Below are positions 290 through 53,165 of a stretch of DNA of 53,165 bases, piece by piece. Each line of letters starts with the position of its first letter. The first letter of the stretch is position 1. The notes under the pieces were generated by a model, which worked only from the letters and a program-made list of their open reading frames with translations, ran no database searches and was not told the origin of the DNA. The position numbers and the translations under genes are program-made. This DNA comes from a virus (taxonomy: Duplodnaviria > Caudoviricetes): the IMG/VR virus record IMGVR_UViG_3300030118_000876, positions 1-53,165 of that record, one strand, 5' to 3'.

Positions 290-318
290 TTGCAAAATCG
301 GGTCGCCTCGCCCAAACT
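290..318 (+). promoter_or_regulatory. Sigma70-like promoter for the early operon
   Basis: TTGCAA(290-295)-17 nt-CAAACT(313-318). Confidence 0.55.
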
Positions 319-323
319 GGGTT

Positions 324-401
324 TGTCTTTCGGGGCTGTCCTTTTACGGACTTCCTAAGAGACATTCAATCAACGCCATTGAACTAATTAACTAAGGAGG
401 T
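324..401 (+). promoter_or_regulatory. Structured 5' leader and strong SD
   Basis: TGTC...GACA-closed hairpin 324-364 with inner GTCC/GGAC; TTCAAT/ATTGAA hairpin 365-383; TAAGGAGGT 393-401. Confidence 0.55.
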
Positions 402-406
402 GTAAA

Positions 407-700
407 GTGGCAAAAATATACGAAGGTAATGTATCTATCTTTAAGAACTCTAAAGATAAGATTGTTGTAAAAGCTGATCCTACTGGTCAGTACAATGCTG
501 AGAATGTTGAAGCACTTGCTTCAAAGATGACTGAACTTGGTCGTTCTTTGAAAGCTGAAGTAAACTTCTTCATTCCAGAGACTAACTCAGACAAGCCTAT
601 CAAGGCTGTCTTGCTAGCTAATCGTTGGGGTTCCCCTTACGTAGCTTACTTACCTGAGGGTAAGACATCTACTCGTAAGCCTATTGAAAAGCTTGCTTAA
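407..700 (+). CDS. Early hypothetical protein, 97 aa, paralog of 52243-52536
   Basis: GTG start with near-perfect SD; shares IxEGNVSI, DPxG, LxAxRxGxP and terminal KLA with the 52243 protein. Confidence 0.9.
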   Translation: MAKIYEGNVSIFKNSKDKIVVKADPTGQYNAENVEALASKMTELGRSLKAEVNFFIPETNSDKPIKAVLLANRWGSPYVAYLPEGKTSTRKPIEKLA

Positions 701-708
701 TCTTAATC

Positions 709-737
709 AGGGACAGTGGTGTAATGCTACTGTCCCT
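709..737 (+). promoter_or_regulatory. Intergenic 12-bp hairpin without U-tract
   Basis: AGGGACAGTGGT-GTAAT-GCTACTGTCCCT. Confidence 0.6.
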
Positions 738-756
738 ATTCGTGTTGGAGGTGAAT

Positions 757-957
757 ATGTATTCATGTGTTGTATGTTCTGCTGAAGTCAATGACAAACG
801 TGTCAAGTTAGGTTATGATACTTGCATGCTCTGTGGTGACAAGCAGGCTAGGGAGGTTGTGCATACAGTACTACCTTTACACAAATCCAACTACATGTTG
901 GTGACCAATCGGGAGGAACTGATTGGTTTCAATACGAAGGGAGGGATAGTCAAATGA
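757..957 (+). CDS. C4 zinc-finger protein (DksA/TraR-type finger)
   Basis: CVVC-x-R-x-CMLC pattern; SD GGAGGTG before ATG 757 (start revised from 724). Confidence 0.75.
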   Translation: MYSCVVCSAEVNDKRVKLGYDTCMLCGDKQAREVVHTVLPLHKSNYMLVTNREELIGFNTKGGIVK

Positions 958-1240: not shown

Positions 1241-1449
1241 CCAATAAGAAATCTATGAAGCTTTTCGTACTTCGGTATGGAAAAGGTGGAGATGTAGTAA
1301 AGGGGGAAGATGGCACACCCCTGTACTTCAACGACAAACAAGTTGCCAAGAACCATCGGGGAGACAACATGGTTGTCTCATATGGCCCTGACCATCGTAA
1401 ACACAAAGGAGGAATAGATGCGAGCCACTCTACTAAAACAAACAATTAA
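1237..1449 (+). CDS. Hypothetical protein
   Basis: SD GGAGGT, ATGA overlap. Confidence 0.7.
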   Translation: MTNKKSMKLFVLRYGKGGDVVKGEDGTPLYFNDKQVAKNHRGDNMVVSYGPDHRKHKGGIDASHSTKTNN

Positions 1450-2410
1450 ATCATTGTTCCCTACACAACGGACAATGGCAATCGAAGGTGCACCGGGTGG
1501 TGGTAAGACTACCATCTGTGAAGAAGTTGCCAATGAATTGAAGGTTGGTTTCATTGAGAAACACATGCCGACAATGTTGGTCGAAGACTTCGGTATCATG
1601 TATCCAAATGGTGATGATATGTTGCACTACAAACTACCAGACTGGTATCCGTCACAAGACAGAACGGATATACCTGACACTGGTATCCTATGCTTTGATG
1701 ACAGGAACCAAGCCAATGCTGACTTGCAGAAAGTCTTGGCTAACATCTGTCAAGCTAGGAATCTACATGGTAAACCACTCAAGGAAGGTTGGATGGTTGT
1801 CTCGACAGGTAACCGACAGTCTGACAGAGCAGGTGCTAATCGTGTACTGTCTCACTTGCGTAATCGTGAGACTGTGTATGAACTTGAAACACACCTTGAT
1901 GACTGGTGTTCATGGGCTATTGACCATGGAGTGAAGCCCGAAGTTGTTTCGTTCATACGTTTCAGACCTAATCTCTTGCATGACTTTGATGCTCAACGTG
2001 ACCAAAACCCTACACCACGTTCATGGGTTGAGGGTGTGTCTGACGCCATTGGTGTTGTACCAACTAACGCTGAGTATGAAACATTCAAGGGTGCTGTTGG
2101 TGAAGGTGCGGCGGCAGAATTTGTAGGTTTCGTTAAGATCTACAGGAAGCTACCGAATCCTGACAACATCATCATGAATCCTACTACAGCCGAGGTTCCT
2201 GATGACCCTGCTACGTTGTATGCCCTGTCTGGTGCTATCGCTGAACGTGCAACTGTCAACAACTTTGAGCGTGTTGTGACTTATGCCGAGCGTATGCCAC
2301 CTGAGTTCAGTGTACTGTCTGTGTCCTATGCAAGTCGTAAGAACGCAGAACTGGCTTCAACGCAAGCGTTTACGAAGTGGGCTGTTAACCATCAAGATGT
2401 CCTATTTTAA
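1418..2410 (+). CDS. AAA+ ATPase (MoxR/AAA_5-like)
   Basis: Walker A GAPGGGKT, Walker B-like ILCFDD, sensor STGNR, arginine finger LRNR, TPRSW motif. Confidence 0.85.
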   Translation: MRATLLKQTIKSLFPTQRTMAIEGAPGGGKTTICEEVANELKVGFIEKHMPTMLVEDFGIMYPNGDDMLHYKLPDWYPSQDRTDIPDTGILCFDDRNQANADLQKVLANICQARNLHGKPLKEGWMVVSTGNRQSDRAGANRVLSHLRNRETVYELETHLDDWCSWAIDHGVKPEVVSFIRFRPNLLHDFDAQRDQNPTPRSWVEGVSDAIGVVPTNAEYETFKGAVGEGAAAEFVGFVKIYRKLPNPDNIIMNPTTAEVPDDPATLYALSGAIAERATVNNFERVVTYAERMPPEFSVLSVSYASRKNAELASTQAFTKWAVNHQDVLF

Positions 2411-2421
2411 CGGAGGTAGAT

Positions 2422-3273
2422 ATGAAGTTATCGGACAAAGCACTATTGGTTCAACTGAATGTATCACAGTGGACTGCTAGGAAGTATGACAAGAGGGCTA
2501 CTGAACAGGTAGCCCAACAGAATGGTTCTGCTGTACAAGCAGGACGATACAACAAATCGTTGTTACCTATGAATGATTACCTTGATAATGTTCATAAGAA
2601 AACAACCACTATCAGAGCGAAGTACTACGCCAATACCCTACCTTGGGGTATTGAGGGTACAATGTTGTTACCATCTGCAAACTACTTGAACTTCATGACA
2701 GAGTTTAGGAAGGAGAAAGCAGATTGGCAAACACTTGTGGACAGCTTTTGGAATGAGTATTCAAGGCTGAAGCAAGATGCACAACGCTTCTTGGGTAACC
2801 TGTACAACGATGCAGACTACCCACCACTGCACGACATCCAACGTAAATTCAAGATGGACTTGGCTGTGTTCCCTGTACCATCTAACGATTTTCGTGTGCA
2901 AATATCGGATGATGAACTGTCTCGTATACAGAATGATGTTGAAGCTAGAGTACAAGATGCGGCTCAACAAGCTATGCAGGAAGCATGGCAACGTTTGTAT
3001 GACCGAGTCAAACACATGGCTGAGAAACTTGCAGACCCTAAGGCTATCTTCCGAGATACTCTGATCGAGAATACCAAGGAAGTATGTTCTGTACTTAGCC
3101 GACTTAACTTTGCTGATGACCCTAACTTGGAAGCCTTACGACAACAAGTTGAGGGAAGTCTAGCTAACAACCACCCTGAAAGTCTACGTAATGACCCTGA
3201 CTTGAGACGTGATAAAGCGGCTGAAGCCAAGGCAATCATGGACAAGATGGGTGCATTTATGGGAGGTAACTAA
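2422..3273 (+). CDS. Helical coiled-coil protein, DUF3150-like
   Basis: SD GGAGGT; largely helical; lies between the AAA+ and vWA genes; family from recall. Confidence 0.6.
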   Translation: MKLSDKALLVQLNVSQWTARKYDKRATEQVAQQNGSAVQAGRYNKSLLPMNDYLDNVHKKTTTIRAKYYANTLPWGIEGTMLLPSANYLNFMTEFRKEKADWQTLVDSFWNEYSRLKQDAQRFLGNLYNDADYPPLHDIQRKFKMDLAVFPVPSNDFRVQISDDELSRIQNDVEARVQDAAQQAMQEAWQRLYDRVKHMAEKLADPKAIFRDTLIENTKEVCSVLSRLNFADDPNLEALRQQVEGSLANNHPESLRNDPDLRRDKAAEAKAIMDKMGAFMGGN

Positions 3274-4394
3274 TGGCAGATGTTGAGAAACGAATCAGTA
3301 AAGCTAAGACTTCATTGATTCTTGAGCATCCCTTTGTTGGTAGTATTGCTTTGAATATGCCGATGAAGGTTGACAACTCTGTACCTACTGCCGCCACTAA
3401 TGGTAAGCGTGTACTGTTCAATGGAGATTTCTGCAATGGGTTGGATGATGAGGAACTTAAGTTCCTCGTCGCCCACGAATGTTTACACCCAATGTTGGAA
3501 CACAACTTCCGTAGACAAGAACGTAATCCATACAAGTGGAACAAAGCGGCTGACTATGTAATCAACAAGCTGTTGACTGATGAAGGTATTGGTAAGATGC
3601 CCGAACAAGGTCTGCTTGATGAGAATATATACCAGTCTGGTAATGGTACATCCGAGGGTATCTACGGAATACTACCCGAGGAAGATGAAGGTAATGAAGG
3701 CTATGGTGGTCAAGGTCAACCACTAGACAGCTGTGAAGATGGTGAAGGTTCACCTGCTGAAGTATCACAGCAACAAGCCGAATGGAAAGTCAAGGTAGCA
3801 CAAGCGGCTCAAGCGGCTAAGATGATGGGCAAGTTGAGTGCAGGTCTTGAACGTATCGTTGATGAAGTCTTGAAACCCAAAGTGGACTGGAGGGAAGTCT
3901 TACAGAGATTTGTTGTCAAGTGTAAGTCTGACCAACGCTCGTGGGCTAGACCCAATAGACGATTCCTTTCTCAAGGATTGTATTTACCAAGTGTATCGGG
4001 TGAATCATTGGGAGACATTGCGTTCGCTGTAGACTGTTCGGGTTCTATCGGACAAGACGAAATCAATCAGTATGCTAGTGAAATACGTACAGTTTGGGAA
4101 GATCACAGACCAACAAATATACACGTCATCTACTTTGATTCTGAAGTCTGTCACTACGATAAGTTTGACAGAGACAACGAACCAACAATCAAACCACATG
4201 GGGGTGGAGGTACTGCTTTCAGTCCTGTGTTCAAATACATGCAAGACAATTCTATTGACCCAGTTGCTTGTGTGTTTCTAACAGACCTTTGCTGTGATGA
4301 CTTTGGTGATGCACCTGATTACCCAGTTCTATGGGTGTCAACGCATGATGACAAAGCACCATTTGGTGAGGTCGTAATGATGAAGGAGGTATAA
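3273..4394 (+). CDS. Metallopeptidase plus vWA domain protein (DUF2201-like)
   Basis: TAATNG, HExxH (AHECLH), MIDAS DCSGS, GGGGT, FLTD. Confidence 0.85.
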   Translation: MADVEKRISKAKTSLILEHPFVGSIALNMPMKVDNSVPTAATNGKRVLFNGDFCNGLDDEELKFLVAHECLHPMLEHNFRRQERNPYKWNKAADYVINKLLTDEGIGKMPEQGLLDENIYQSGNGTSEGIYGILPEEDEGNEGYGGQGQPLDSCEDGEGSPAEVSQQQAEWKVKVAQAAQAAKMMGKLSAGLERIVDEVLKPKVDWREVLQRFVVKCKSDQRSWARPNRRFLSQGLYLPSVSGESLGDIAFAVDCSGSIGQDEINQYASEIRTVWEDHRPTNIHVIYFDSEVCHYDKFDRDNEPTIKPHGGGGTAFSPVFKYMQDNSIDPVACVFLTDLCCDDFGDAPDYPVLWVSTHDDKAPFGEVVMMKEV

Positions 4395-16887: not shown

Positions 16888-17314
16888 GACAGCCACTGCT
16901 CTGATCTGTATGGCTCACGCTATATATTTCGAAGCTAGGTCTGAGTCTACAGCGGCTCAGATCGCAGTGGGTCATGTAATCCTTAACAGAGTAGAAGATC
17001 CTAGATTCCCTGACAACGTGTGTGAAGTTGTTACAGAAGGTGTAAGGTATAACACTGGCCAGATGAAAAGGGATAAGTGTCAGTTTAGTTTTTACTGCGA
17101 TGGTAAACCTGAAAGAGTCTATGAACACTTAGCATATATGAGAGCAGAAGCCTTATCATTTATAATTTTAGATAGCCATATGACATATGATATAACTGAT
17201 GGAGCTACGCACTATCATGCTACATACGTCAATCCTGTATGGGCAAATAGATTTACTAGGACTACCTGTATAGATAGCCACTGTTTCTATAGAGCAGATA
17301 CTAAAGATCGCTAG
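16877..17314 (+). CDS. Cell wall hydrolase (SleB/Hydrolase_2 family)
   Basis: CMAHAIYFEARSE, VILNRV, CQFSFYCDG, GATHYHATYV.P.W, HCFY. Confidence 0.9.
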   Translation: MILETATALICMAHAIYFEARSESTAAQIAVGHVILNRVEDPRFPDNVCEVVTEGVRYNTGQMKRDKCQFSFYCDGKPERVYEHLAYMRAEALSFIILDSHMTYDITDGATHYHATYVNPVWANRFTRTTCIDSHCFYRADTKDR

Positions 17315-20300
17315 GGTCTAAACCTAGAATCTCCATCATCTCATCAATCTCACTTCTTACATTCTTAGGTGCAATCTTTCTGTACCTAAGCACAGTTGGT
17401 TGTCTAGCCATCTTGAGAGATTTATTAGCAGACCTTACAAAGTTTCTAAACTCAAACTCTGTTCCTCTATGCTCTCGGTTATGTTCAGCAACCATTTGAA
17501 GAATTCTATTAGCTTCATCTATGTCATTATTCAGACTAGCTTTTACATATGCTTGTGTGTAGTTCAGCTTCATTGATTTGACGTAAGCATCTGAAAACTT
17601 GTTTATACGAACTATGTCATTGGACACCGTCGCGATAGAAGGATAAAAACCCATCATTCTTACAAGAGCAACGTGCAGTGGGACATCATTAGATATTACA
17701 TTACCTTTTGCATTTGTGATTCTACCATCGCTTAGATAAGTAAACCCATCTGCTACACCTCTAACAGCAGATACTGGTGAATCACGAAGAATATCTACAA
17801 ACCTAGTAGTATCATCCTTCAACCCTATGACCTCTGCACCATACTTTGCAAGCGCACCTGTAGTCATAATAGCACCTTGGATACCATTATATACTGGCCC
17901 TACAAAGTTTTCTGCTTCACGCCAAGGATCAGCACCTGCTTTGAATACACCAGTTAAAGGTATAAGGTCACCGAATCCAAGCCTTGTGGATATTGTACCA
18001 CCAAAAGCTCTATCCAAAATACCACGCATTACAAATGGGGAAGCACCGGGAACTAGAGCATCACTAAATTTCATGATCTCTTTTTCTACACTACCCATTT
18101 TGATGCCAAACTTTTGAGCAAGTGTATCAACTAGATCCATAAGATCATCAGCAAATGGGATACCTTTTACACCGGACAGCAGTAAGAGTAGACCTAAGAA
18201 GTATAGTCTTCCCTTGTAGTTCATACCTCTCATCAGTTCCACACTGATGATAACAAACTGTTTATACATAAAGATATATTGAAGGAAGTTACCCCTAGCC
18301 ATTTCAGGTCTGTTATACATAGCGTATTCACCCTGAGATGTGTTCACAGCTTTACGTCCAAACTCTGCTGCACGTTCTTGTGCGTCAGCAAGGCTAGCAC
18401 CTGCTGCTAGTTGTCTATCTCTTTCCAATCTGTACGCAGCTAGATATGTAGTTCTACGGTTCATTTGCTCCGTAAATGAGAACATATACATCCAGCCTTT
18501 AATCGCTGCTGCTGTCTTATTACTGTTTACACCACCTCTTGCTGTACCAACTAGAGCATTAAACTGAGCAGCTTGAAGCACACCCTCGGCTGTAGCATCT
18601 CGTAAGGCTACGGCTTCATCTTCACTTAAACCATGTTTGTCTTGTAGTTCTTGGCTAGTTGCTACTTCATTTACGTAAGCAAACTCAGCAAGCTTACCAT
18701 TCTTCATATTCCTTGCAGCACGAACCATAGCTGCACCAGATGCACTGAAACCAAATCCTCCACCATAACCACGCTTTGGATTGTATGTGGCTAAATAAGG
18801 AACAGAGTGAGTTACCATAGACACTGCGTTAACCGCAGATGTAGCTACAGATCCACCGAGTTGGAATAAAACAGCTATAAGTTTTAACCTAGATCCTACT
18901 TCACCAGACAGTATATCCTCAGTAGAAGAATCAATATTAGCTGCATCACTAAACCATGTAAGGGTTCGTTTAGCTTCTTCTTTAAATTCTTCACCCCTAC
19001 CTAGTGTTGCTTCTTTTACAGCTTTTCTTTCTGCGCCTTCACCTCTGTATATATTTACAGTTCTACCGTCTCGTACATCGGCACTGTATTTATACTTGAA
19101 CGCATAGTCATCATACTCTTGTCTTGCAGTTTGAATCTGTTCTTGATTACCTACTCGTTCAGCACGAAGCATAGCTTCTTCAAGTCTTTTTAGCTTGGCA
19201 GGATTACCTCTCCACATATTATTATCAAGCATGATTTTATTTAGTCGATGCCTGTAATATGTCTTACCAGCCATATGACCTTGTGTTTCTAGATGCTCAG
19301 ATACACTACGAATTACATCTGTATCCCAGCCTGCTACACCTGATCTCTGAAGGTTACGCCTTGCTCGCTCTCCTTGTGCAGTCAAAGCTACAGTAAGTCG
19401 TTCACGTTCAGATGGGTTGATACCAATATCAAGCCTTGTTAGTACATTGATAAACTCAGATAGATTTACTGTATCAGTAAGTGGTTGTGACTGTGCTGCT
19501 TTACCAAAGTCCGAAACAAATTTTACATCTACTTCGTTACCATCTTTATCAAGTACTTTGAATGTCTGCTCACCAAATGATTCATTTAGCTTTTGTTGTA
19601 TAACTCTAGCTTCTTCCCTTGTTTCTGTTTGGAAATAGGGCATAGAGCCTTTGTATGATTCTTCTAGAAGCACATCTTGGCCTGCTGAATTAACAGCTTT
19701 GACCATAACTTGGAACTTACCTCGTCTGGTAAATGGTACATACGCACCCATAATGGTACGCTTAGCCAAGAACTCAGCGTTGGCGTTCTTAACATCAAGC
19801 AAGTAAATATTCTGAATTGTATTAGTAATCTGATTAGCTTGGTTAGAACTAAATCCGATTGCGTTAAGCCTTTGCAGCCCGTCAATAATATCTCTAAAGT
19901 TCTCATCTTGGAACTTAGATGCTTTTTCATTAGGGTTAGCTGTTACCCAATCATTTACTTTTGATTGCTCAAACAAAGCACGATTAATTTCTCGTATAAA
20001 ATCACGAGCGTTCTCTACAGATTCATCGTTATAACGAAGACCAGATCCTTCTGCGACAGCATTTTCTTTATATAGTCTTGTGTACTCTTGGATAACTCTA
20101 TCCAGAATATTGATTTCTACACTGGTAGGTGCATTACCAGATGTACCTGTCATATTTTTAAATGTCTCTAAAGCATCATTCTTCTGTTGGAGTGCCGCCC
20201 CAAGATTAGCTTCAAGTACATCAAGTGCAGACTGGTTTACTGCAGCTCTTTGTTCTTGGTATATACGCCATACATTTTCTCTATCTACTCGTTGGCCAGA

Positions 20301-23300
20301 CTGTTGAGCTGCTTGTTCATAGTTAGGTCTATATGTACCGGACGGATCCTGACCTTCTGGTACAACATCTAGTGTATATGAGATTCCAGCATCAAATTCT
20401 TCTTGAGTTATTTCACCTGCTTGTTTGACTTGCTCAAAAGCATTAGGGTCAATAATAACATTACCATCTGGATCTGCTACAGCTAGTTTAGGAGCAGCCC
20501 TAATCATAGCTTCTGTTACAGCTTTACCTTTATTCAAAGCTGCATATGCAAGCATCTCACCAGCAAGGTTTAGTTCTGCTTCTGTTGGGCCTTGACCGAA
20601 TCCCATCCAATTAGGAGCATGAGAGAAGGCTGTAAGTCTAGCATACTCAGCATGTAGCCTTCTGACCCTAGCTGATTGAGATTGGAATATCTTAAATACC
20701 TCTGACAGACCCTCTGATTTATGAGCTAGGTTGTCTAGAGTTTGTACTTTCTGTAGTGCTGCGCCCACATAGTTAGCAACGTCTGAGATAGTATCTTTAC
20801 CCCCACGTCTCTTAACCATCTCAGAAAAGCCTGTAAAACTACCGAATGGGCCGGTGTTTTTATTCATTCCAAACTGAGTAAATAGCGTGGATGCTAGGTC
20901 TGCTCTATCATTCTCTACAGAATAACGTCCAAACATACTGTCACGTTGTAGACGTTTGAGGTTTTTGCTCAACTGTTGCGCAGATACAACACCGCGGCCA
21001 CCTGTACGTAAGTTTCTACGTGATTGACTAATGAAGTACCGGGCAAGATCATCAGGGAATGTCATGCCTAGTCTATTCATAAAGTTTCTGACAGCAGTCC
21101 AGAATCTTGCAACCAGTGATATATCTAGGTTAGCAGCTGCATCAGCTAATGCTTCTTCTACAGCTTCCATCTTATCCATACCACGATCTATATTACGATC
21201 AGCTACAGCACGAATATGTCCGTCAGTTCTATATATCTCTCTGAAGATTGCATTCATTCTATCACGAGGCATAAAGGCTCTGAATCCAAAGTGGCCTAGT
21301 GCTTCGTGAGCTACTACAAATCTTACTTGTTGTTCAGTCTTAGCAAAGTCACTGAAGATAATAATCTGATCACCAACAGAAAAACCTACAGCATTTATCT
21401 GACCAAAATCACCATTAGGTCTACTTGCTGCAGCTCTTTCATATAGCTTAGGATTAGTAGCTCGTAGGTCTTCAGCATTTTTAACTACAGTTACAGTTGG
21501 CTTAGCTCGTAATTTTTTAAGAACCTGCTTAACAATAAGCTCAATCTTACCTTTTGGTACTGGATTAGTAATCGGCGCACCATCTGCTCTAAAGAAGTTA
21601 CCATCTTCTTTGGTATCATACTGACCGAACAGATCATCATCTCTGATACTACGTGTATCTGCAGCTGCAGCTTCTGCACTTCTTATACCCTCAAGGAACT
21701 CACGCTCACGCTCTGCTGCTTTTAGTCTAGCTGCAGCAATAGTCTTCTGTCTTTCCTGAAGTTGTTGTGGTGTAAATGTCTTTGTGGTTGGTACGAATCG
21801 ACCATCGCCACTTCTTACCAGTTTAATCTCACCGTTTTCGTTAAAGTATTCTTTTAGTTTTGTGCCTCTACCCATTCTAAATTCTGGGTCTGCATCAGCG
21901 TACAACCTGTTAAGACGTTTAATTTCTTTTGAATTTTCTCGTTTGATTTGAACTATAGCTTCATCTCTGATCTGTAAATCAATCTGCTTCTCAAGCTCAA
22001 GACTAGCTATTTCTTTTACTCGTTCGTTAGCAGTACGAGTATCTTCTGAAGCTGCCACTTCTCTAGTAGCTTCTTGTGTTTCTTGTGCAACTGGTTCTGC
22101 TACAACTTCTGGCTGCTTAGCTTTATACCAAGCTGGCATTGCTAGCAGTCTAGATTCTAGTCTATCAAATAGGTTTCGTTCAGCTGCGTAAGCAACCCAA
22201 GGTCTGTCTTTACCAGCTGCAGTACCATTTAGTTTATCATTAAGATTAGCTTCTGCTACAAATGCTTCATCCATAGCCTGTTGTTGAGCAGCACTAAACT
22301 GAGTTGTATTAATATAAGCCTGTGCTCTTGCTCGTACACTAGGCTGACCACCTGCAGTTTTCTTTGTTAGGTTTGTATCACCATTAAAGTACGCAAGATC
22401 CATAATGGTTTGTGCTGCATACTCTAAAGTTGTGCCATTCTGTATGGTACTTTCATCAAACAGAGCAATAGCTTCCTGTAGTTCTTCTAGATTAGTTAGT
22501 GTTATATTTTCTCTAGCTTCATCATACAGAGCTTTTGTTTTTTCATATGTGACTGTACCATCGGCAACCATAGCTTCGAACTTACGACGCTGACCTTCTG
22601 GTAAACGATCTAGTTCAACAGCACCTTCAATACCCATGTCTTCCCATGCTTCATACGGAGAAGCATATAGGGATGCTACACGAGTGTCTTCGGCGCTATC
22701 CGGTTGCCTATCTTGTTGTGTTTGATCTGCTGGTTGCGCAGCTTGTTGCTGGCTACCTTTCCGAAGGGCTTCTGCCGAGACTGCTTCTTGGCGTTGGATC
22801 TCGCTAGTCGGCGTCGCTCTGAGTCGCTCGGCTGGCCTATCCGCTGTGGTAGTTTCTTGTTCTTGGGTGTCTCTGCTTCGAACTGTTTCGCTATCTCTGG
22901 CTTGTTCGCTTGGAGCCACTTCTTCTGTGCTTCGCTCTTGAACGGCATCTTGTCCTCTCCTTAAGTTAGTAGCTGCAGGAGCTACAGGCTCATCGAAAGG
23001 TAACGGCAGTTGACCTGCCTGCTCTAGCTCAGCAGTGGTTGGTAGTGTTTCTACAGGTGTTGCAGCTTGTGGGCCTCTACGCAAAGCTCTTTGAGCAAAT
23101 GGTACACCCATCCCCGGAAGGGATAACTGCCTAGGAGGTAGCGGTGTACGCTCCACCGTTGGCATTTTAAGCTGTGTATTTTCTGCAGTTAGTCTATCAT
23201 TCTCAGCAAGAATTTGTTCGACTCTTGCATTTTGAAGCTCTTGAATCTGTTCTTGTTGACGTTGTTGTAGAGCCATATCGAACTCACGCTGCCTCTGCGC

Positions 23301-25505
23301 ACGTTCTCTTTCAAGCTGTGCTTCTTGTCTGGCAGTCTGTGCTTCAATCTTTGCGTCTTGTTCTGCAACTTGGGCAGCTCTTAAAAGCTCTTGACCCATA
23401 GCAGTTTGCTGTACTTCAGGCTGCTGCGCTGCAATCTTCGCTGCTGCAATGGTTGGGTTTTCTAGTGGTAGTTGTTGCTGACCAGTAACTTGGTCTTCTA
23501 GTGCTTGATTTGACGTAGACACAGCCTGTCCTGCAGGATCAACTACAACTGTCTGGTTATTTAGAGCCTGCTCTACTGTGTTATTGGTATCACCTTGTGT
23601 CCCATCTGCGGCAACTGGAGCTTGTGTTGTGGCACCTTGATTCCGCAATCGTTGGATATCAAAGTATACATCTTCATTAGGAATACCTAAATCTCTATAG
23701 TTACGAGCTGGGCCAATACGTTGTATATCAGCTTTTTGTTGGTCAGTAAGAGGATAGTTTGGGTCTATTAAATCAGGCGCATAACCCGGGTTATAAGAAA
23801 CAAACTCATCATCTGACATTGTAAGAAGTCTAGGATTCTGCCGAATAAGTTCTTCTGCTGTTTGACTAGGTAGAGGACGTTGACCTTGTCCCATTTCTTC
23901 AGCAGAGAATAATTCACCTTGAGTTCCACTAGGAGCAGGAAGGGCCGCTACAGAGGGAGGAGCTGGAAGGGCACCTGCAACCCTGCTCTCTAGTGGATTA
24001 GGGCTAGGGTTTTCTGGATCAACTGGATCTGAAGTACTTTCTGGTTCAGGATTGTTGTCACTATTGAGTAAGTCAGTTGGTTGTCCTTTTCTTAGATTTG
24101 CTACGCCACCGATAGGCCCACCTACACCAAAACCTGCAGCGAAAGCATTTAAAAGTCGTTTACCTGTTTCTGCATCACCAAGTTGGTTAGTGCTAGAAAG
24201 AAGTATAGCTTCTTGGCCTAGTTCTGTAAGACCTTCAAGAGCACCACCAACTGCAAAACCTTTACCTGCTCTACTAGCAATACCACCTTTTGCCATACCT
24301 GATGGAGATAAAGCAGAGTTAGGTACACCAAGGATTCTACCAGCTAAGAAAAATTCAGGAATTACTTCTAATGCAGCATAAGGTATAGCACCTAGTAGAG
24401 CTGTGCCTCTATCACCTACACCTGTGTCTCTTACTTCACCATAAATGTCAGCGACACCCATACCGTAAGCACCTGTCGTAGTACCAAGGAAAGCACCTCC
24501 AGCAATAGCTTGGTTTCTACCAGCCTGAGATGCTTTTGTAGCACCAGCTAAAAGTGCATCATCAAAGAAATCTTTACCTTTTGTAGCTACTCCAGATCTA
24601 CCAACATAAAATGCAGCTGGATTCTTAATCTGAGCAGCACCTGTAATACCTGCAACTTCACGAAGAAGTTTTTTCTCACCGTTGGTAAGAACTTGTCCTT
24701 TCATATATTTTTTAGCTGCAGCAAGTACGCTTTGTTTAAATGATTCTTTACCCATAAGAGCAAGAACACCACCACCTACAGCTGTAAATGGGTTAGCACC
24801 ACCGCCTGCAACTGCACCTGCACCCGCTCCGACCAAAGCCGTAGCAATAGATTCAAAGAGCATTGGCCCTTGTTGGGCTAGGTTAGCTACAAACCAGTCA
24901 ATAGCACCATGAGATTCATCACCAAGCTCAATACCAGTAAACTCACGTTGGTATGGTTGGTTATAATAAAGTTCTTTTACTGCTTCGTTTACCCAGTCTT
25001 GACCTGTTTCTTCAGCACCAAGGAACTGCATACCTCGACCAGCAAGTAGTTTTAGATTACTACCACCGATCTCAAAGTTACGTGCAGCCAAGTTACCAAG
25101 GCTAGGATTTTCAATATTTTTAATATATCCAGCGTAAGTATCAGGAGATACTTGCTGCCAATCATAGCCAGCTGGAGCTAGCTTTGGTGGTTGAGTTAAA
25201 AACTCTTTAGACTGTACAGCAGAACTGGCATCATCTGCATCAAACAGAGCACCATTTACAAACATCTTGTTGGTTGATGGACTATATAATACCTGAGGCC
25301 CACTGACTTGTGGCTTATTTAAACTAGGCATTTCAAACTGAGAGCTGTTAACTAGGCTATCACCTAATGCAGCCATGTCTGCAAGACCGCCTCCCAGTGC
25401 TCCTATACCTACATCAGTTTGTGGTCGGAAAGGGTTACCAAGAGGGTCTAAGTCCATTGCTGTGAGGGTCGTACTCCCAAACGGTTTTAGACCTGCTTTT
25501 GCCAT
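17301..25505 (-). CDS. Giant internal virion/ejection protein (2734 aa) with zincin-like HExxGH motif
   Basis: Last gene of the structural arm; Gly/Ala-rich hydrophobic N-terminal region, Q/P-rich linker, VAHEALGHFG, helical C-terminus. Confidence 0.75.
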   Translation of the reverse strand: MAKAGLKPFGSTTLTAMDLDPLGNPFRPQTDVGIGALGGGLADMAALGDSLVNSSQFEMPSLNKPQVSGPQVLYSPSTNKMFVNGALFDADDASSAVQSKEFLTQPPKLAPAGYDWQQVSPDTYAGYIKNIENPSLGNLAARNFEIGGSNLKLLAGRGMQFLGAEETGQDWVNEAVKELYYNQPYQREFTGIELGDESHGAIDWFVANLAQQGPMLFESIATALVGAGAGAVAGGGANPFTAVGGGVLALMGKESFKQSVLAAAKKYMKGQVLTNGEKKLLREVAGITGAAQIKNPAAFYVGRSGVATKGKDFFDDALLAGATKASQAGRNQAIAGGAFLGTTTGAYGMGVADIYGEVRDTGVGDRGTALLGAIPYAALEVIPEFFLAGRILGVPNSALSPSGMAKGGIASRAGKGFAVGGALEGLTELGQEAILLSSTNQLGDAETGKRLLNAFAAGFGVGGPIGGVANLRKGQPTDLLNSDNNPEPESTSDPVDPENPSPNPLESRVAGALPAPPSVAALPAPSGTQGELFSAEEMGQGQRPLPSQTAEELIRQNPRLLTMSDDEFVSYNPGYAPDLIDPNYPLTDQQKADIQRIGPARNYRDLGIPNEDVYFDIQRLRNQGATTQAPVAADGTQGDTNNTVEQALNNQTVVVDPAGQAVSTSNQALEDQVTGQQQLPLENPTIAAAKIAAQQPEVQQTAMGQELLRAAQVAEQDAKIEAQTARQEAQLERERAQRQREFDMALQQRQQEQIQELQNARVEQILAENDRLTAENTQLKMPTVERTPLPPRQLSLPGMGVPFAQRALRRGPQAATPVETLPTTAELEQAGQLPLPFDEPVAPAATNLRRGQDAVQERSTEEVAPSEQARDSETVRSRDTQEQETTTADRPAERLRATPTSEIQRQEAVSAEALRKGSQQQAAQPADQTQQDRQPDSAEDTRVASLYASPYEAWEDMGIEGAVELDRLPEGQRRKFEAMVADGTVTYEKTKALYDEARENITLTNLEELQEAIALFDESTIQNGTTLEYAAQTIMDLAYFNGDTNLTKKTAGGQPSVRARAQAYINTTQFSAAQQQAMDEAFVAEANLNDKLNGTAAGKDRPWVAYAAERNLFDRLESRLLAMPAWYKAKQPEVVAEPVAQETQEATREVAASEDTRTANERVKEIASLELEKQIDLQIRDEAIVQIKRENSKEIKRLNRLYADADPEFRMGRGTKLKEYFNENGEIKLVRSGDGRFVPTTKTFTPQQLQERQKTIAAARLKAAEREREFLEGIRSAEAAAADTRSIRDDDLFGQYDTKEDGNFFRADGAPITNPVPKGKIELIVKQVLKKLRAKPTVTVVKNAEDLRATNPKLYERAAASRPNGDFGQINAVGFSVGDQIIIFSDFAKTEQQVRFVVAHEALGHFGFRAFMPRDRMNAIFREIYRTDGHIRAVADRNIDRGMDKMEAVEEALADAAANLDISLVARFWTAVRNFMNRLGMTFPDDLARYFISQSRRNLRTGGRGVVSAQQLSKNLKRLQRDSMFGRYSVENDRADLASTLFTQFGMNKNTGPFGSFTGFSEMVKRRGGKDTISDVANYVGAALQKVQTLDNLAHKSEGLSEVFKIFQSQSARVRRLHAEYARLTAFSHAPNWMGFGQGPTEAELNLAGEMLAYAALNKGKAVTEAMIRAAPKLAVADPDGNVIIDPNAFEQVKQAGEITQEEFDAGISYTLDVVPEGQDPSGTYRPNYEQAAQQSGQRVDRENVWRIYQEQRAAVNQSALDVLEANLGAALQQKNDALETFKNMTGTSGNAPTSVEINILDRVIQEYTRLYKENAVAEGSGLRYNDESVENARDFIREINRALFEQSKVNDWVTANPNEKASKFQDENFRDIIDGLQRLNAIGFSSNQANQITNTIQNIYLLDVKNANAEFLAKRTIMGAYVPFTRRGKFQVMVKAVNSAGQDVLLEESYKGSMPYFQTETREEARVIQQKLNESFGEQTFKVLDKDGNEVDVKFVSDFGKAAQSQPLTDTVNLSEFINVLTRLDIGINPSERERLTVALTAQGERARRNLQRSGVAGWDTDVIRSVSEHLETQGHMAGKTYYRHRLNKIMLDNNMWRGNPAKLKRLEEAMLRAERVGNQEQIQTARQEYDDYAFKYKYSADVRDGRTVNIYRGEGAERKAVKEATLGRGEEFKEEAKRTLTWFSDAANIDSSTEDILSGEVGSRLKLIAVLFQLGGSVATSAVNAVSMVTHSVPYLATYNPKRGYGGGFGFSASGAAMVRAARNMKNGKLAEFAYVNEVATSQELQDKHGLSEDEAVALRDATAEGVLQAAQFNALVGTARGGVNSNKTAAAIKGWMYMFSFTEQMNRRTTYLAAYRLERDRQLAAGASLADAQERAAEFGRKAVNTSQGEYAMYNRPEMARGNFLQYIFMYKQFVIISVELMRGMNYKGRLYFLGLLLLLSGVKGIPFADDLMDLVDTLAQKFGIKMGSVEKEIMKFSDALVPGASPFVMRGILDRAFGGTISTRLGFGDLIPLTGVFKAGADPWREAENFVGPVYNGIQGAIMTTGALAKYGAEVIGLKDDTTRFVDILRDSPVSAVRGVADGFTYLSDGRITNAKGNVISNDVPLHVALVRMMGFYPSIATVSNDIVRINKFSDAYVKSMKLNYTQAYVKASLNNDIDEANRILQMVAEHNREHRGTEFEFRNFVRSANKSLKMARQPTVLRYRKIAPKNVRSEIDEMMEILGLDPSDL
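22676..22948 (-). CDS. Nested +1-frame basic protein (MPFKSEAQKKWL...), 90 aa
   Basis: Own SD TAAGGAG 8 nt upstream of ATG; N-terminus resembles stand-alone small phage proteins starting MPFKS..Q (recall). Confidence 0.65.
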   Translation of the reverse strand: MPFKSEAQKKWLQANKPEIAKQFEAETPKNKKLPQRIGQPSDSERRRLARSNAKKQSRQKPFGKVASNKLRNQQIKHNKIGNRIAPKTLV

Positions 25506-51259: not shown

Positions 51260-51472
51260 CTAACCCCAAGCCCCCGCTTTATTCATTAAGTCATCATACT
51301 CATCAATAAGTAAGACATAATACTTAGTAGGTTCTTGTTTATTTTTAATTATTTTAGTCTTGAACGATATACCAATATCATTCAATCCTCTAGTAAATTG
51401 TTCATACTCGGCTAGTGACTCAAAACTTACAGCACGAGTTCCCTGATAGAGTTCTACAAATCGGCTAAGCAT
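51260..51472 (-). CDS. Hypothetical protein, 70 aa
   Basis: Start revised to ATG 51472 with GAGGAG SD. Confidence 0.65.
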   Translation of the reverse strand: MLSRFVELYQGTRAVSFESLAEYEQFTRGLNDIGISFKTKIIKNKQEPTKYYVLLIDEYDDLMNKAGAWG

Positions 51473-51941
51473 TACCGATTGCTTTTGGCTCCTCAACGTC
51501 TTCAGCGTCGATGACAGTTGCTGTGTGCTCTTGACCCCCGAGGTTAATTGTAATTTTAACTCCGCCACCAGATCCCTCCGTCTGTGTATCATTCTTTGGT
51601 TCTAGTCCGCCCCACTTAACAGTTGATTTAATAAGGTCAGCCTTAACCGCAGCAGATGTGTCTGGGTTATGAATCAAAGTCCAAGATGTTGTTAATAGTT
51701 CTTCCGCTTGGGCACGGGCCTTTAACTTGAAGGTCATACCTTTTTCACGGATCTCATTTCTGTAGGATTCTACCTTCTTTAGAAAGACGGGATCTTTCTG
51801 AAATACAAGAATGTCCTCGGCAGAAATACTGTGCCGATCTTTTACTTCATCTAACGTCTCACCGCTGCCTTCTAGCATGAGTGCCATATCAAAGGCCAAA
51901 CGATCAGACCACTTCGTGTGTTTTAAAGGTAGTGTGTCCAT
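51465..51941 (-). CDS. terS: Putative terminase small subunit
   Basis: First late gene upstream of terL; helical core and C-terminal GGGVKITINLG strand. Confidence 0.6.
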   Translation of the reverse strand: MDTLPLKHTKWSDRLAFDMALMLEGSGETLDEVKDRHSISAEDILVFQKDPVFLKKVESYRNEIREKGMTFKLKARAQAEELLTTSWTLIHNPDTSAAVKADLIKSTVKWGGLEPKNDTQTEGSGGGVKITINLGGQEHTATVIDAEDVEEPKAIGNA

Positions 51942-51947
51942 ACCCCA

Positions 51948-51975
51948 ATTATGCAGTAAATTACGGGCATGTCAA
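51948..51975 (-). promoter_or_regulatory. Sigma70-like promoter, probably giving a leaderless terS mRNA
   Basis: TTGACA-16 nt-CATAAT-6 nt-ATG. Confidence 0.6.
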
Positions 51976-52143
51976 ATAATTTCAAAACTTTACACTTCGA
52001 TTTTTTGGGTCTTGCTATGAGAGGTTTACTTATATGGGGGTGGGGGTCGCGGCGCAAGTCCATGTGCCCCCCTGCCTAACGTACACAAAAGAACAAATCG
52101 TGAACGGCTAACAGCCTTTAAAACTAGGCATTATGGGGCATAC

Positions 52144-52172
52144 TTGACAATCATGTAAACTTAACCCATAGT
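52144..52172 (+). promoter_or_regulatory. Sigma70-like early promoter
   Basis: TTGACA-17 nt-CATAGT. Confidence 0.7.
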
Positions 52173-52177
52173 GAAAT

Positions 52178-52238
52178 TGTCGCTGAGGGCAGTGACACCC
52201 GAACAGCTAGCGGGATTACTAGCTACATTACTGGAGGT
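52178..52238 (+). promoter_or_regulatory. Structured leader (hairpin plus possible H-type pseudoknot) and SD
   Basis: TGTCGCTG-AGGG-CAGTGACA; CCCG-aac-AGCTAG-CGGG-atta-CTAGCT; GGAGGT. Confidence 0.55.
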
Positions 52239-52242
52239 CTAC

Positions 52243-52536
52243 ATGAGTAGAATCTTTGAAGGGAATGTTAGCATTGTGGCTAACACTAAGGGCGAGGTAG
52301 CCTTAAAGCGTGACCCTAACGGCGCTTGGAACTCCTCAAATGCTAAGGAACTCTATGGCAAATGCCTAGAGATTAGCGAGGCGAAGAAAATGCCATTACA
52401 TAAATGGTCTTTCTTCAAGGCTGACGGTGGTACTGATGTACTACTAATGGCGGACAGATACGGTAATCCTAGGATTACAATCCTACCGCCTAAAGCCGAG
52501 GGTCAAGCTAAGTCACGAGTGACTAAGTTAGCCTAA
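52243..52536 (+). CDS. Early hypothetical protein, 97 aa, paralog of 407-700
   Basis: Start revised to ATG 52243 (SD GGAGGT); same length and motifs as 407-700. Confidence 0.88.
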   Translation: MSRIFEGNVSIVANTKGEVALKRDPNGAWNSSNAKELYGKCLEISEAKKMPLHKWSFFKADGGTDVLLMADRYGNPRITILPPKAEGQAKSRVTKLA

Positions 52537-52545
52537 CGTAACCCA

Positions 52546-52567
52546 GAGGGGAGAGCAATCTCCCCTC
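52546..52567 (+). promoter_or_regulatory. GNRA hairpin without U-tract
   Basis: GAGGGGAGA-GCAA-TCTCCCCTC. Confidence 0.65.
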
Positions 52568-52587
52568 GCAACCAAACGGAGACTGAT

Positions 52588-52785
52588 ATGTCTATGAAAG
52601 ATGGTGTAAGAGAGTACCGAGTAGATTATGTAAAATGGGGTAACATATACTCAGAGTGGTACTACAGAAAGTCAGACGCAGAAAACTTATGCTTCAGACT
52701 GAAAGACGACCCCGACGTGGAACGCAAATATGAAATTGCAATAGTCCACACAACAACAAACAAGCAACTAGCTTGGAACTTCTAA
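52588..52785 (+). CDS. Hypothetical early protein
   Basis: GGAG SD; followed by a terminator. Confidence 0.7.
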   Translation: MSMKDGVREYRVDYVKWGNIYSEWYYRKSDAENLCFRLKDDPDVERKYEIAIVHTTTNKQLAWNF

Positions 52786-52793
52786 CAAGGAAC

Positions 52794-52830
52794 GAGGTGG
52801 CTCAGAGAAATCTGGGTCATCTCTTTTTTT
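52794..52830 (+). terminator. Intrinsic terminator
   Basis: 13-bp stem GAGGTGGCTCAGA-GAAA-TCTGGGTCATCTC followed by T7. Confidence 0.85.
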
Positions 52831-53066
52831 ATTTCTTTTAATAATATATATCCCATACGTCGGGGGGTTTCGGCTCGCTTGTAATCGCGATGTAAAGCCT
52901 GATGTTACACGATAAGTTTACAGGAAATGGTACATCAGGTGTAAAGTTAGGTACTATCTAGTGTATCTAGTCCATACTTGACACAATATGTAGACTTTTA
53001 GATAGCATAACCTTACAACTTGACACCAAAAAAGCGTTATAACGCAAGGGTTTACACCATATGTGC

Positions 53067-53165
53067 TCAAGTAAACTATCTAAACTATCTAAAATATATA
53101 GATAAATTCAATATACCCTTTCATGAAAGGATTTCTTGAGGAATATATGTAAAACGCGGTAGTCA
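53067..53165. repeat. Copy of 1-99 (circular overlap)
   Basis: Exact match. Confidence 0.9.

Follow-up and report, generated by a model that had tools for sequence, protein, structure and literature searches.

An uncultured marine podovirus has two related small genes that flank a repeat array, each as part of a compact expression unit of its own; what is their role? The genome is IMGVR_UViG_3300030118_000876, a complete virus record of 53,165 bases, which was analysed at its full length and is called the window here. Its map is circular, because the last 99 bases repeat the first 99 (53067-53165 are a copy of 1-99). On balance, we consider it probable that the two units are separate, self-contained, high-expression early cassettes and that the proteins they encode make up a paired early factor. 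The two genes, called copy A and copy B, and the array between them are placed as follows:

407-700, + strand: copy A, the downstream paralog, 97 amino acids (aa), GTG start, heading a long rightward gene block
52243-52536, + strand: copy B, the upstream paralog, 97 aa, ATG start
52955-53165, unstranded: TATCTA/TAGATA array, first part
1-229, unstranded: TATCTA/TAGATA array, second part

The original prediction, which was made from the letters of this DNA, described the two genes as diverged paralogs of exactly 97 aa that flank a TATCTA array on the circle, and this description is borne out. Both proteins have 97 aa, carry the motifs that had been quoted and end in KLA. BLASTP aligns them over their full length with 36 identities in 103 positions (35%, E 2e-19), and between them on the circle 12 TATCTA/TAGATA copies lie within ~440 base pairs (bp). 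Judged by this alignment, copies A and B are true paralogs.

A pattern search of IMG/VR yielded 61 related loci. Both copies are kept, on the same strand, in 51 of these, with the B-type copy first and the A-type copy 0.9-2.0 kb downstream; the ten single-copy loci lie on contigs that end before the expected site of the other copy, one of them being a rearranged 3.2-kb contig. In a divergent lineage, both copies are present in 11 of 14 loci, and the remaining three do not have enough flank. Every relative with enough flank keeps the tandem pair. In a quick maximum-likelihood tree of 74 distinct proteins (a careful search is unfinished), the 33 upstream and the 41 downstream copies separate at one branch, with a Shimodaira-Hasegawa-like approximate likelihood ratio support (SH-aLRT) of 100; read from this tree, the duplication is older than the whole sampled group. 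The ratio of nonsynonymous to synonymous substitution rates (dN/dS) was determined for seven genomes picked by hand, with saturated-dS pairs dropped, and its medians in the window's clade are 0.115 for B (11 pairs) and 0.27 for A (21 pairs). By this measure, both paralog genes are under purifying selection within that clade.

The protein family had been set down as unrecognised, and it has no entry in the libraries either. A and B match no Pfam family at E up to 1 and nothing in PHROGs, NCBIfam or PADLOC at E up to 0.1, while a Pfam scan of 82 family members produced one single stray match (E 0.002). The family comprises 107 representatives (50% identity, E up to 0.001), nearly all of ~100 aa, and a search of 185,579 bacterial and archaeal species, each represented by one genome, found no relative. 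The two giant proteins P0080 and P0108, which gave many profile matches, are repeat proteins of other families, and these matches were treated as spurious.

AlphaFold models of A (from 32 sequences) and B (from 127 sequences) reached a predicted local distance difference test score (pLDDT) of 79 and 87.3, respectively. The models concur in having two N-terminal strands, an 18-residue helix and two or three more strands, with pLDDT up to 95 across residues 11-80 and a low-confidence tail from about residue 83. Each paralog would thus consist of a beta-beta-alpha-beta-beta(-beta) core of unmatched fold followed by a flexible tail. Against solved structures, the best Foldseek matches have an E of 0.27 for model A and 0.15 for model B, and the exhaustive aligner VIA gives a best Z of 3.2 and 2.8, respectively, on a scale where models without a clear match typically reach 7-8. 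A profile search of the PDB with the paralogs has a best E of 0.11. The sole structural match is one unnamed 114-aa viral protein in BFVD (E 7.5e-8). In the ESM Atlas the nearest clusters are unnamed, and a search restricted to named clusters returned none; one cluster with a score of 0.89, in which 23% of the members are DUF736, was dropped as a candidate, no family member having matched DUF736 in Pfam. The window's two proteins are basic, with isoelectric points (pI) of 9.4 and 9.7 (family median 9.6, range down to 5.5), and no arginine-rich stretch is visible in their sequences. Prediction of an A+B heterodimer, run as a single job, scored 0.14 against a mark of 0.32, which we count neither for nor against a heteromer.

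The ends of the two proteins are alike. Among 43 distinct pairs, the tails end in KLA/KLA in 37, KLA/VLG in 4 and VLD/VLG in 1, and one pair is truncated. A long-form lineage (L064-L077), found via the distant family member P0123, extends this comparison. Its paralogs have 120-123 aa, with a common insertion of ~22 residues in both copies, and are only 21-35% identical to the window's, which puts them beyond detection by tblastn; the genes that flank them are 71-85% identical to the window's (terminase 82%, a 158-aa gene 84%, ATPase 74-78%), on par with those of the clade of L024. The architecture is kept as well, namely the TATCTA array, the promoter layout with TGTCG 5 nucleotides (nt) after the -10 element, and hairpins of the tetraloop type. 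In place of KLA, however, both long-form copies carry a tail that reads NDNIVLL or NDNIVTL, and the second-last residue, T or L, matches between the two copies of each genome. The codons of the tails differ between copies (TTA GCC versus CTT GCT in the window; in the long form, 13-17 of the 21 bases agree). Because the copies use different synonymous codons, selection on the tail peptide is likelier than recent gene conversion.

That both paralogs have this tail in common suggests that they dock on one and the same partner. The pLDDT of the tails is low in both models, and proteins that bind to a common partner are laid out in this way, with a folded core, a floppy linker and a shared terminal peptide. 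Bacterial single-strand binding protein (SSB) is built similarly: like it, the paralogs have a folded core, a low-confidence linker and a short conserved C-terminal peptide with a hydrophobic end, here common to both copies. Unlike that protein, they showed no SSB similarity in the searches with the models or in the PDB profile search. The terminal peptide would most likely dock both proteins on the same partner, which may be a host hub or a phage protein.

How these genes are expressed is suggested by their surroundings. Upstream of the two copies lie the following elements:

290-318, + strand: A promoter TTGCAA-N17-CAAACT (-35 at 290-295, -10 at 313-318), read from the sequence, 7 of 12 consensus letters
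324-364, + strand: A leader 5'-proximal tiered hairpin (TGTCTTT...AAGAGACA), one hairpin, -21.6 kcal/mol, z -1.9
52144-52172, + strand: B promoter TTGACA-N17-CATAGT (-35 at 52144-52149, -10 at 52167-52172), found by the scan, 10 of 12 consensus letters
52178-52197, + strand: B leader 5'-proximal hairpin TGTCGCTG-AGGG-CAGTGACA, from folding, with double-sided changes in 4 of 8 pairs
52198-52224, + strand: B leader pseudoknot-like element, stem S1 CCCG 52198-52201 with CGGG 52211-52214, stem S2 AGCTAG 52205-52210 with CTAGCT 52219-52224
52233-52237, + strand: B ribosome-binding site GGAGG

Each unit had been credited with a sigma-70 promoter with a 17-nt spacer. Counting as sigma-70-type two hexamers 16-18 nt apart with at least 9 of 12 matches, we find that this applies to the B promoter, whereas the window's A promoter falls short; it was not reported by the scan and is weak against the E. 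coli consensus. In relatives, the -35 element at the A-promoter site reads TTGACA or TTGACG, and the pattern TTGAC(A/G)-N17-(C/G)AnnnT is present in 28 of 31 distinct B (upstream-copy) leaders and in 33 of 35 distinct A (downstream-copy) leaders. Since the letters that follow the promoter are usually G(A/G)nTTTGTC-like, TGTC is a conserved feature of several clades, although not of all. It is from these host-type promoters and from the position of the genes only that we infer that the cassettes are expressed first.

Some sequence from RNA libraries was found on the locus of L003, a relative that is 96.7% identical to the window over 5.5 kb. Seven small metatranscriptome contig pieces, from four runs and three studies, match it: two lie within B, one runs from B across the B hairpin into the next gene, and one lies within that next gene. 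On A, the matches are partial, 39-44 nt long with loose ends, and nothing longer was seen. These pieces are a weak hint at most, because the libraries may hold DNA and the contigs show no ends.

It should also be noted that the element CGCTTTCTCTGTGTAC lies at 262-280, directly 5' of the A -35 hexamer, and is retained across clades in variants such as CGCTTTCTCTATGAAC and CCGCTTTTCTAGGAAAAC; it may serve as a site for an activator or as an UP-like site.

The leaders are structured at their 5' ends. As predicted, TGTC stands exactly 5 nt after the -10 element in both units and is closed by GACA (324-327 with 361-364 in A; 52178-52181 with 52194-52197 in B), and each unit has a consensus ribosome-binding site, in keeping with the strong site that had been claimed. 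The B leader folds into two hairpins. A helix that starts no more than 11 nt after the -10 element, at -7 kcal/mol or better, was found in 20 of 28 B leaders and in 27 of 33 distinct A leaders, with a median z of about -2.1; of the eight B exceptions, seven show a weaker hairpin of 6 bp in the same place. Covariation was counted in an alignment of 16 window-clade B leaders, 15 of them distinct, from a total of 28 distinct leaders. Of all cells, 92.7% are paired in the three-helix structure, and 11 of its 18 pairs change on both sides; none of 500 shuffles reached the observed value, and slid controls paired in 21-44%. The second hairpin, S2, shows a compensatory change in all six of its pairs. 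A second 6-bp hairpin had been expected in A as well, yet the candidate there (TTCAAT/ATTGAA) lies outside the minimum-energy fold and is not kept in relatives by eye. The covariation sought for the leaders and hairpins is present in the B leader and the B 3' hairpins; the alignment of the A leaders gave no consensus.

Across the whole window, Rfam 15 gave no match at gathering score, and around the cassettes there are sub-threshold rows only. Those near the B unit (52754-52845 and 52527-52588) name BSnc120, BjrC68 and the L2-Alphaproteobacteria leader at 18-26 bits, far under the gathering scores. The alphaproteobacterial rows are probably chance matches to terminator-like hairpins and are at most a faint hint at the host.

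Downstream of the two genes lie three further structures:

709-737, + strand: A 3' hairpin, then the tail ATTCGTGTT; 8 nt after the stop, z -5.3, terminator-like in the scan
52546-52567, + strand: B 3' hairpin, 9-bp stem, GCAA loop, no T-run; 9 nt after the stop, z -4.3
52794-52833, + strand: intrinsic terminator closing the B unit, 13-pair stem then TTTTTTT; found by the scan, the genome's second most stable local fold

When the 40-nt folds of both strands are ranked by stability, five of the top 25 in the genome fall within the 1.7-kb cassette region. Strong hairpins 8-9 nt after the stops had been predicted and are present, together with a loop of the G-N-A-A type and no U-tract, which is true of B only. 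The window's B hairpin, with its GCAA loop, is absent from the terminator scan output, whereas the A hairpin has a 12-13 bp stem and a 5-nt loop that is not a clean GNRA loop, and its tail passes the scan for terminator-like sequences. In relatives, a hairpin lies 2-21 nt downstream of B in all 31 distinct sequences, at -12 kcal/mol or better in 27; the four sequences of the L044 group have hairpins at -5 to -8 kcal/mol. A T-run follows the hairpin in 14 of the 31, all from more distant clades (counted by reading), and in these clades the hairpin therefore looks like an ordinary terminator. Downstream of A, a hairpin was found in 27 of 34 distinct sequences; in the other seven the next gene begins immediately, so that the A-side hairpin is dispensable there.

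Selection on these hairpins appears to act on pairing and not on letters. Thirteen B-side tetraloop hairpins were set in a fixed register by script, since MAFFT misaligned three of the 13, and the 18 hairpins with longer loops were left out. Pairing holds in 101 of 104 stem cells (mean 63.5 and maximum 83 after shuffling of partners, with none of 2000 shuffles reaching the observed value), while the 5' arms are only 47% alike and the loops are GCAA-type in nine (one GTAA) and TTCG in four. L001, which is 95.6% identical to the window over 5.4 kb, has a B protein identical to the window's in 96 of 97 residues, yet the letters of its B-hairpin stem differ; they are a wholesale replacement by a stem that is also present in L058. 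The hairpins thus seem to be swapped between phages as small units. Because stems and loops vary among phages with near-identical proteins, we take the 3' hairpins for generic stabilisers or leaky terminators and not for boxB-like elements, and the idea that an antiterminator recognises them as boxB-like hairpins is not upheld. These comparisons fit selection for stability alone, with end protection and partial termination as its probable benefits. What does stand is the broader claim of a conserved module of protein and RNA structure: the gene pair, the promoters, the 5' stem-loops and the 3' hairpins recur, with compensatory changes, in ~60 related viral contigs.

According to the explanation that we favour, host RNA polymerase would read both cassettes at the start of infection. 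Each cassette would consist of a strong -35 promoter, a stem-loop at or beside the 5' end of the transcript, a consensus ribosome-binding site, the 97-aa gene and a stable hairpin after the stop. The 5' and 3' structures would act generically, by shielding the message against 5'-end-dependent decay and against 3' exonucleases. It is well established that 5'-terminal stem-loops stabilise mRNA; the papers by Emory, Bouvet and Belasco and by Bouvet and Belasco, both of 1992, are said to be key to it. As in the stabilisers of ompA and papA, the helix lies within a few nt of the predicted transcript start, and, as with terminator hairpins that give 3' protection, a GC-rich tetraloop hairpin lies 3' of the gene, in the window's B unit without a T-run. 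If the 3' hairpin is a partial terminator, the first gene would be made in excess over the genes behind it. The two proteins would be two subunits, or two versions, of one early factor and would form an obligatory pair. In addition, the B unit may be tuned at translation via the pseudoknot-like fold near its ribosome-binding site.

Several observations weigh against this explanation. The window's own A promoter is weak and absent from the scan output. Taken as a whole, the B leader is no more stably folded than its shuffles (z -0.6), and in 8 of 28 B leaders the first helix is weak or begins later. RNAalifold, run on a MAFFT alignment of the A leaders, gave no consensus. The consensus was missed because the tiers differ in length; a second alignment restricted to the hairpin was still out of register, and the single-sequence folds that were used instead show the same tiered 5' hairpin with different letters. 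The 3' hairpin is missing from 7 of 34 distinct A-side sequences. The conserved loop letters of the B leader (ACCCGAAC, CGGGAWTA) hint at a more specific role than that of a stabiliser. Finally, the concordant tails could reflect micro gene conversion, the last two codons being identical between the copies in L068 and L069.

The B leader leads to the first of the alternatives, namely that protein B, and perhaps A, is a translational autoregulator that recognises the leader of its own message and thereby represses or tunes its synthesis. Such regulation is compatible with the explanation above; as an account in its own right we hold it to be rather improbable, although less so than those that follow. 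The pseudoknot-like fold lies 9-14 nt before the B ribosome-binding site, and the covariation of S2 and the conserved loop letters speak for this alternative, as does the basic character of the window-type proteins. S1 contributes one compensatory change (CCCG/CGGG to CUCG/CGAG), in one of its four pairs and in a single sequence. A second clade has the same topology with other letters: a loop, CCCACA or CCTACA, pairs with TGTGGG or GTAGG just 5' of the ribosome-binding site, with 98% of the stem paired and one pair double-changed (CG to UA) in 3 of 11 sequences, L021 being misaligned there. By eye, the same topology recurs in the clade of L024, L025 and L037 (GACCTA with TAGGTC) and in that of L032 (CCTAG with CTAGG). 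Hence, as far as comparison of the letters goes, the B leader carries a conserved pseudoknot-like fold near its ribosome-binding site. However, S1 depends on that one sequence, and no such pairing was seen by eye in several clades (L027, L042, L043, L055 and the L044 group). Furthermore, the A leader is a plain tiered hairpin only, the model searches found no known RNA-binding fold, no Rfam family was reached at threshold, and the pI within the family goes as low as 5.5.

Pseudoknots near the ribosome-binding site are known from the translational operator of T4 gene 32 and from the S4 and S15 operators. The B unit resembles these in having an H-type pseudoknot-like fold in the 5' leader of an mRNA whose small protein product is probably abundant. 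It differs from them in that the paralogs have no OB fold or zinc site, the fold is on copy B only, and S1 is backed by one compensatory change.

The long-form lineage bears on a second alternative, in which the proteins are an anti-defence or host-shut-off pair that inhibits a host immunity system or enzyme early in infection. We regard this as possible but improbable. The genes come first behind host-type promoters, they have no relative in the bacterial and archaeal genomes searched, and in one lineage both copies have moved beyond tblastn detection while the flanking genes stayed 71-85% identical, which is the pattern of an arms race. On the other hand, the pair belongs to the core of every relative and evolves under purifying selection, whereas known anti-defence genes are usually patchy accessory genes. 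There is also no PADLOC match, although PADLOC covers defence and not anti-defence proteins, and the paralogs are not acidic DNA mimics.

A more specific version of the docking idea seems to us slightly less probable still. Here the paralogs would be a heteromer of new fold that offers its C-terminal peptide (KLA or, in the long-form lineage, NDNIVLL) in two copies to a host hub made of several subunits, such as a protease or an unfoldase with a preference for C-terminal tags; the factor would either take over the hub or have its timing set by it, and the level of B would be self-set via the pseudoknot as an operator. NDNIVLL presumably resembles ssrA tags, which we treat as a lead.

Could the proteins act instead on the array that lies between their genes? 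The word TATCTA occurs 61 times in the whole window against 39 expected, a count reached by none of 100 shuffles, and arrays sit between the two paralog copies in relatives too. The array might serve as an origin, for packaging or as a regulatory region, and DNA-binding proteins acting on it would suit the constant position of the array between the paralog genes and the basic proteins of the window's clade; high early expression would suit an architectural protein. The distribution of the array word points elsewhere. TATCTA is found in the window's clade and in the long-form lineage, although the long-form proteins are only 21-35% identical to the window's; elsewhere the word is AATCTA or GATCTA plus ACTTTACA-like words, and it differs in the clade of L024, yet the proteins there are 47-57% identical. 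Where the word is shared, it is the neighbouring 158-aa gene (51465-51941, - strand) that is more similar (84% versus 67-69%) and not the paralogs, which argues against binding of the array by the paralogs, and no DNA-binding fold was found in the model searches. We therefore consider this role quite unlikely; the array fits a packaging or replication site served by another protein.

Least probable by far is an antiterminator of the lambda N type, binding boxB-like hairpins so that polymerase reads through downstream terminators: the proteins are small and basic, each comes first in an early unit, hairpins lie in the leader and directly after the gene, the B hairpin has a GNRA-type loop and a real terminator lies downstream of the B unit, but the 3' hairpins share no sequence within or between genomes, GCAA and TTCG loops alternate, the stem differs beside a near-identical B protein, seven A-side sequences have no hairpin, and the hairpin of distant clades has a T-run and looks like a terminator in its own right. 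Lambda N itself is a peptide that is disordered and rich in arginine, and its boxB letters are common to both nut sites and co-evolve with N. The cassettes are like N with nutL and nutR in placing a small basic protein first in an early operon with a leader hairpin and a downstream terminator, and in the hairpin just after the first gene (in lambda, that of the other early operon). They are unlike lambda in that the paralogs are modelled as a folded alpha/beta core and not as an arginine-rich peptide, that stems and loops vary freely and differ between the A and B sites, and that no conserved boxA-like element was seen at the cassettes.

The explanation by two early cassettes and a paired factor should also be seen against the rest of the genome. 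The minus strand encodes the terminase, T7-type portal and adaptor, the major head protein, an internal virion protein and tail fibres, and the rightward block encodes a MoxR-type ATPase, DNA polymerase, helicase, primase and a Gp2.5-like single-strand binding protein. This gene content is that of a podovirus. No cultured kin were found when A and B (by tblastn) and 8 kb of the window (by megablast) were compared with 50,697 phage records. The portal is 36.5% identical to that of Rhizobium phage RHph_TM3_14A and ~26% to those of HMO-2011-type roseophages and pelagiphages, which are distant kin only; a search of the literature on HMO-2011, early genes and promoters gave nothing relevant among the matches listed, and those listed for HMO-2011-type phages were genome papers only. 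Near-identical DNA is present in metagenome runs from marine, estuary, sponge and aquaculture sources, in 13 studies.

Comparison with T7 is instructive in this regard. The early region of T7-like phages has strong host promoters (A1-A3), gene 0.3 and hairpins that separate early genes; in T7, too, arrays of short repeats lie next to the terminal repeat, its hairpins are long irregular RNase III sites of ~20 bp or more, and the gene 0.3 protein is an acidic DNA mimic. The window is like T7 in being a podovirus genome with host-type promoters beside a short-repeat array, a small first gene and stable hairpins between genes. Unlike RNase III sites, the stems of the cassettes are perfect, of 9-13 bp, with loops of 3-5 nt, and do not qualify as such sites. 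Unlike the gene 0.3 protein, the paralogs have a pI of ~9.5, and there is no relation in sequence or fold.

Each copy is followed by another small gene, and the two are not related to each other. The one behind B belongs to the B unit:

52588-52785, + strand: 65-aa gene after copy B, an open reading frame

It is 32-55% identical in relatives and belongs to no family in Pfam, PHROGs or NCBIfam. The gene after copy A (757-957, + strand) encodes 66 aa, is 58-82% identical in relatives and gave a stray match only in Pfam. Because it has two CxxC pairs (CVVC...CMLC), it appears to be a small zinc-ribbon-like protein, which may resemble zinc fingers of the TraR/DksA type. Directly after these small early genes, 1418-4394 (+ strand) encodes a MoxR-type ATPase (phrog_1297), a 283-aa protein of no family and a protein that is DUF2201 metallopeptidase-like and VWA-like, the latter labelled 'HNH endonuclease' in PHROGs.

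A strong host-type promoter, TTGACA-16-CATAAT with 11 of 12 matches, lies at 51948-51975 on the - strand, divergent from the B promoter, and faces left towards the genes for packaging and structure. It therefore seems that host polymerase, without modification, could read the 'late' block as well. Between these divergent promoters, at 52037-52076 (+ strand), is a GC-rich element, GGGGTGGGGG...CCCCCC, which is the genome's most stable 40-nt fold (-21.5 kcal/mol) and recurs nearly letter for letter in a distant lineage (L068, 3770-3815). Farther away, a 2,734-aa open frame (17301-25505, - strand) has no Pfam domain at E up to 0.001.

Taken together, the RNA elements by themselves are of known kinds and ordinary biology. 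What would be new, as read from the sequence comparisons, is the protein family, the strict and ancient two-copy layout around an array, the co-changing tail and the conserved leader pseudoknot. The pair would be among the first-expressed genes of a widespread uncultured phage group, and its protein family is unnamed in the libraries and has no likeness to solved structures. Kept through deep divergence and with a tail that changes in concert, the pair provides a handle for finding the host or phage partner that is engaged first. As compact natural 'hardened' expression units, the cassettes may also serve the design of promoters, leaders and terminators for marine, probably alphaproteobacterial, hosts. 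If the proteins are indeed a heteromer that addresses a host hub, the module would be an ancient core take-over device of widespread uncultured marine podoviruses.

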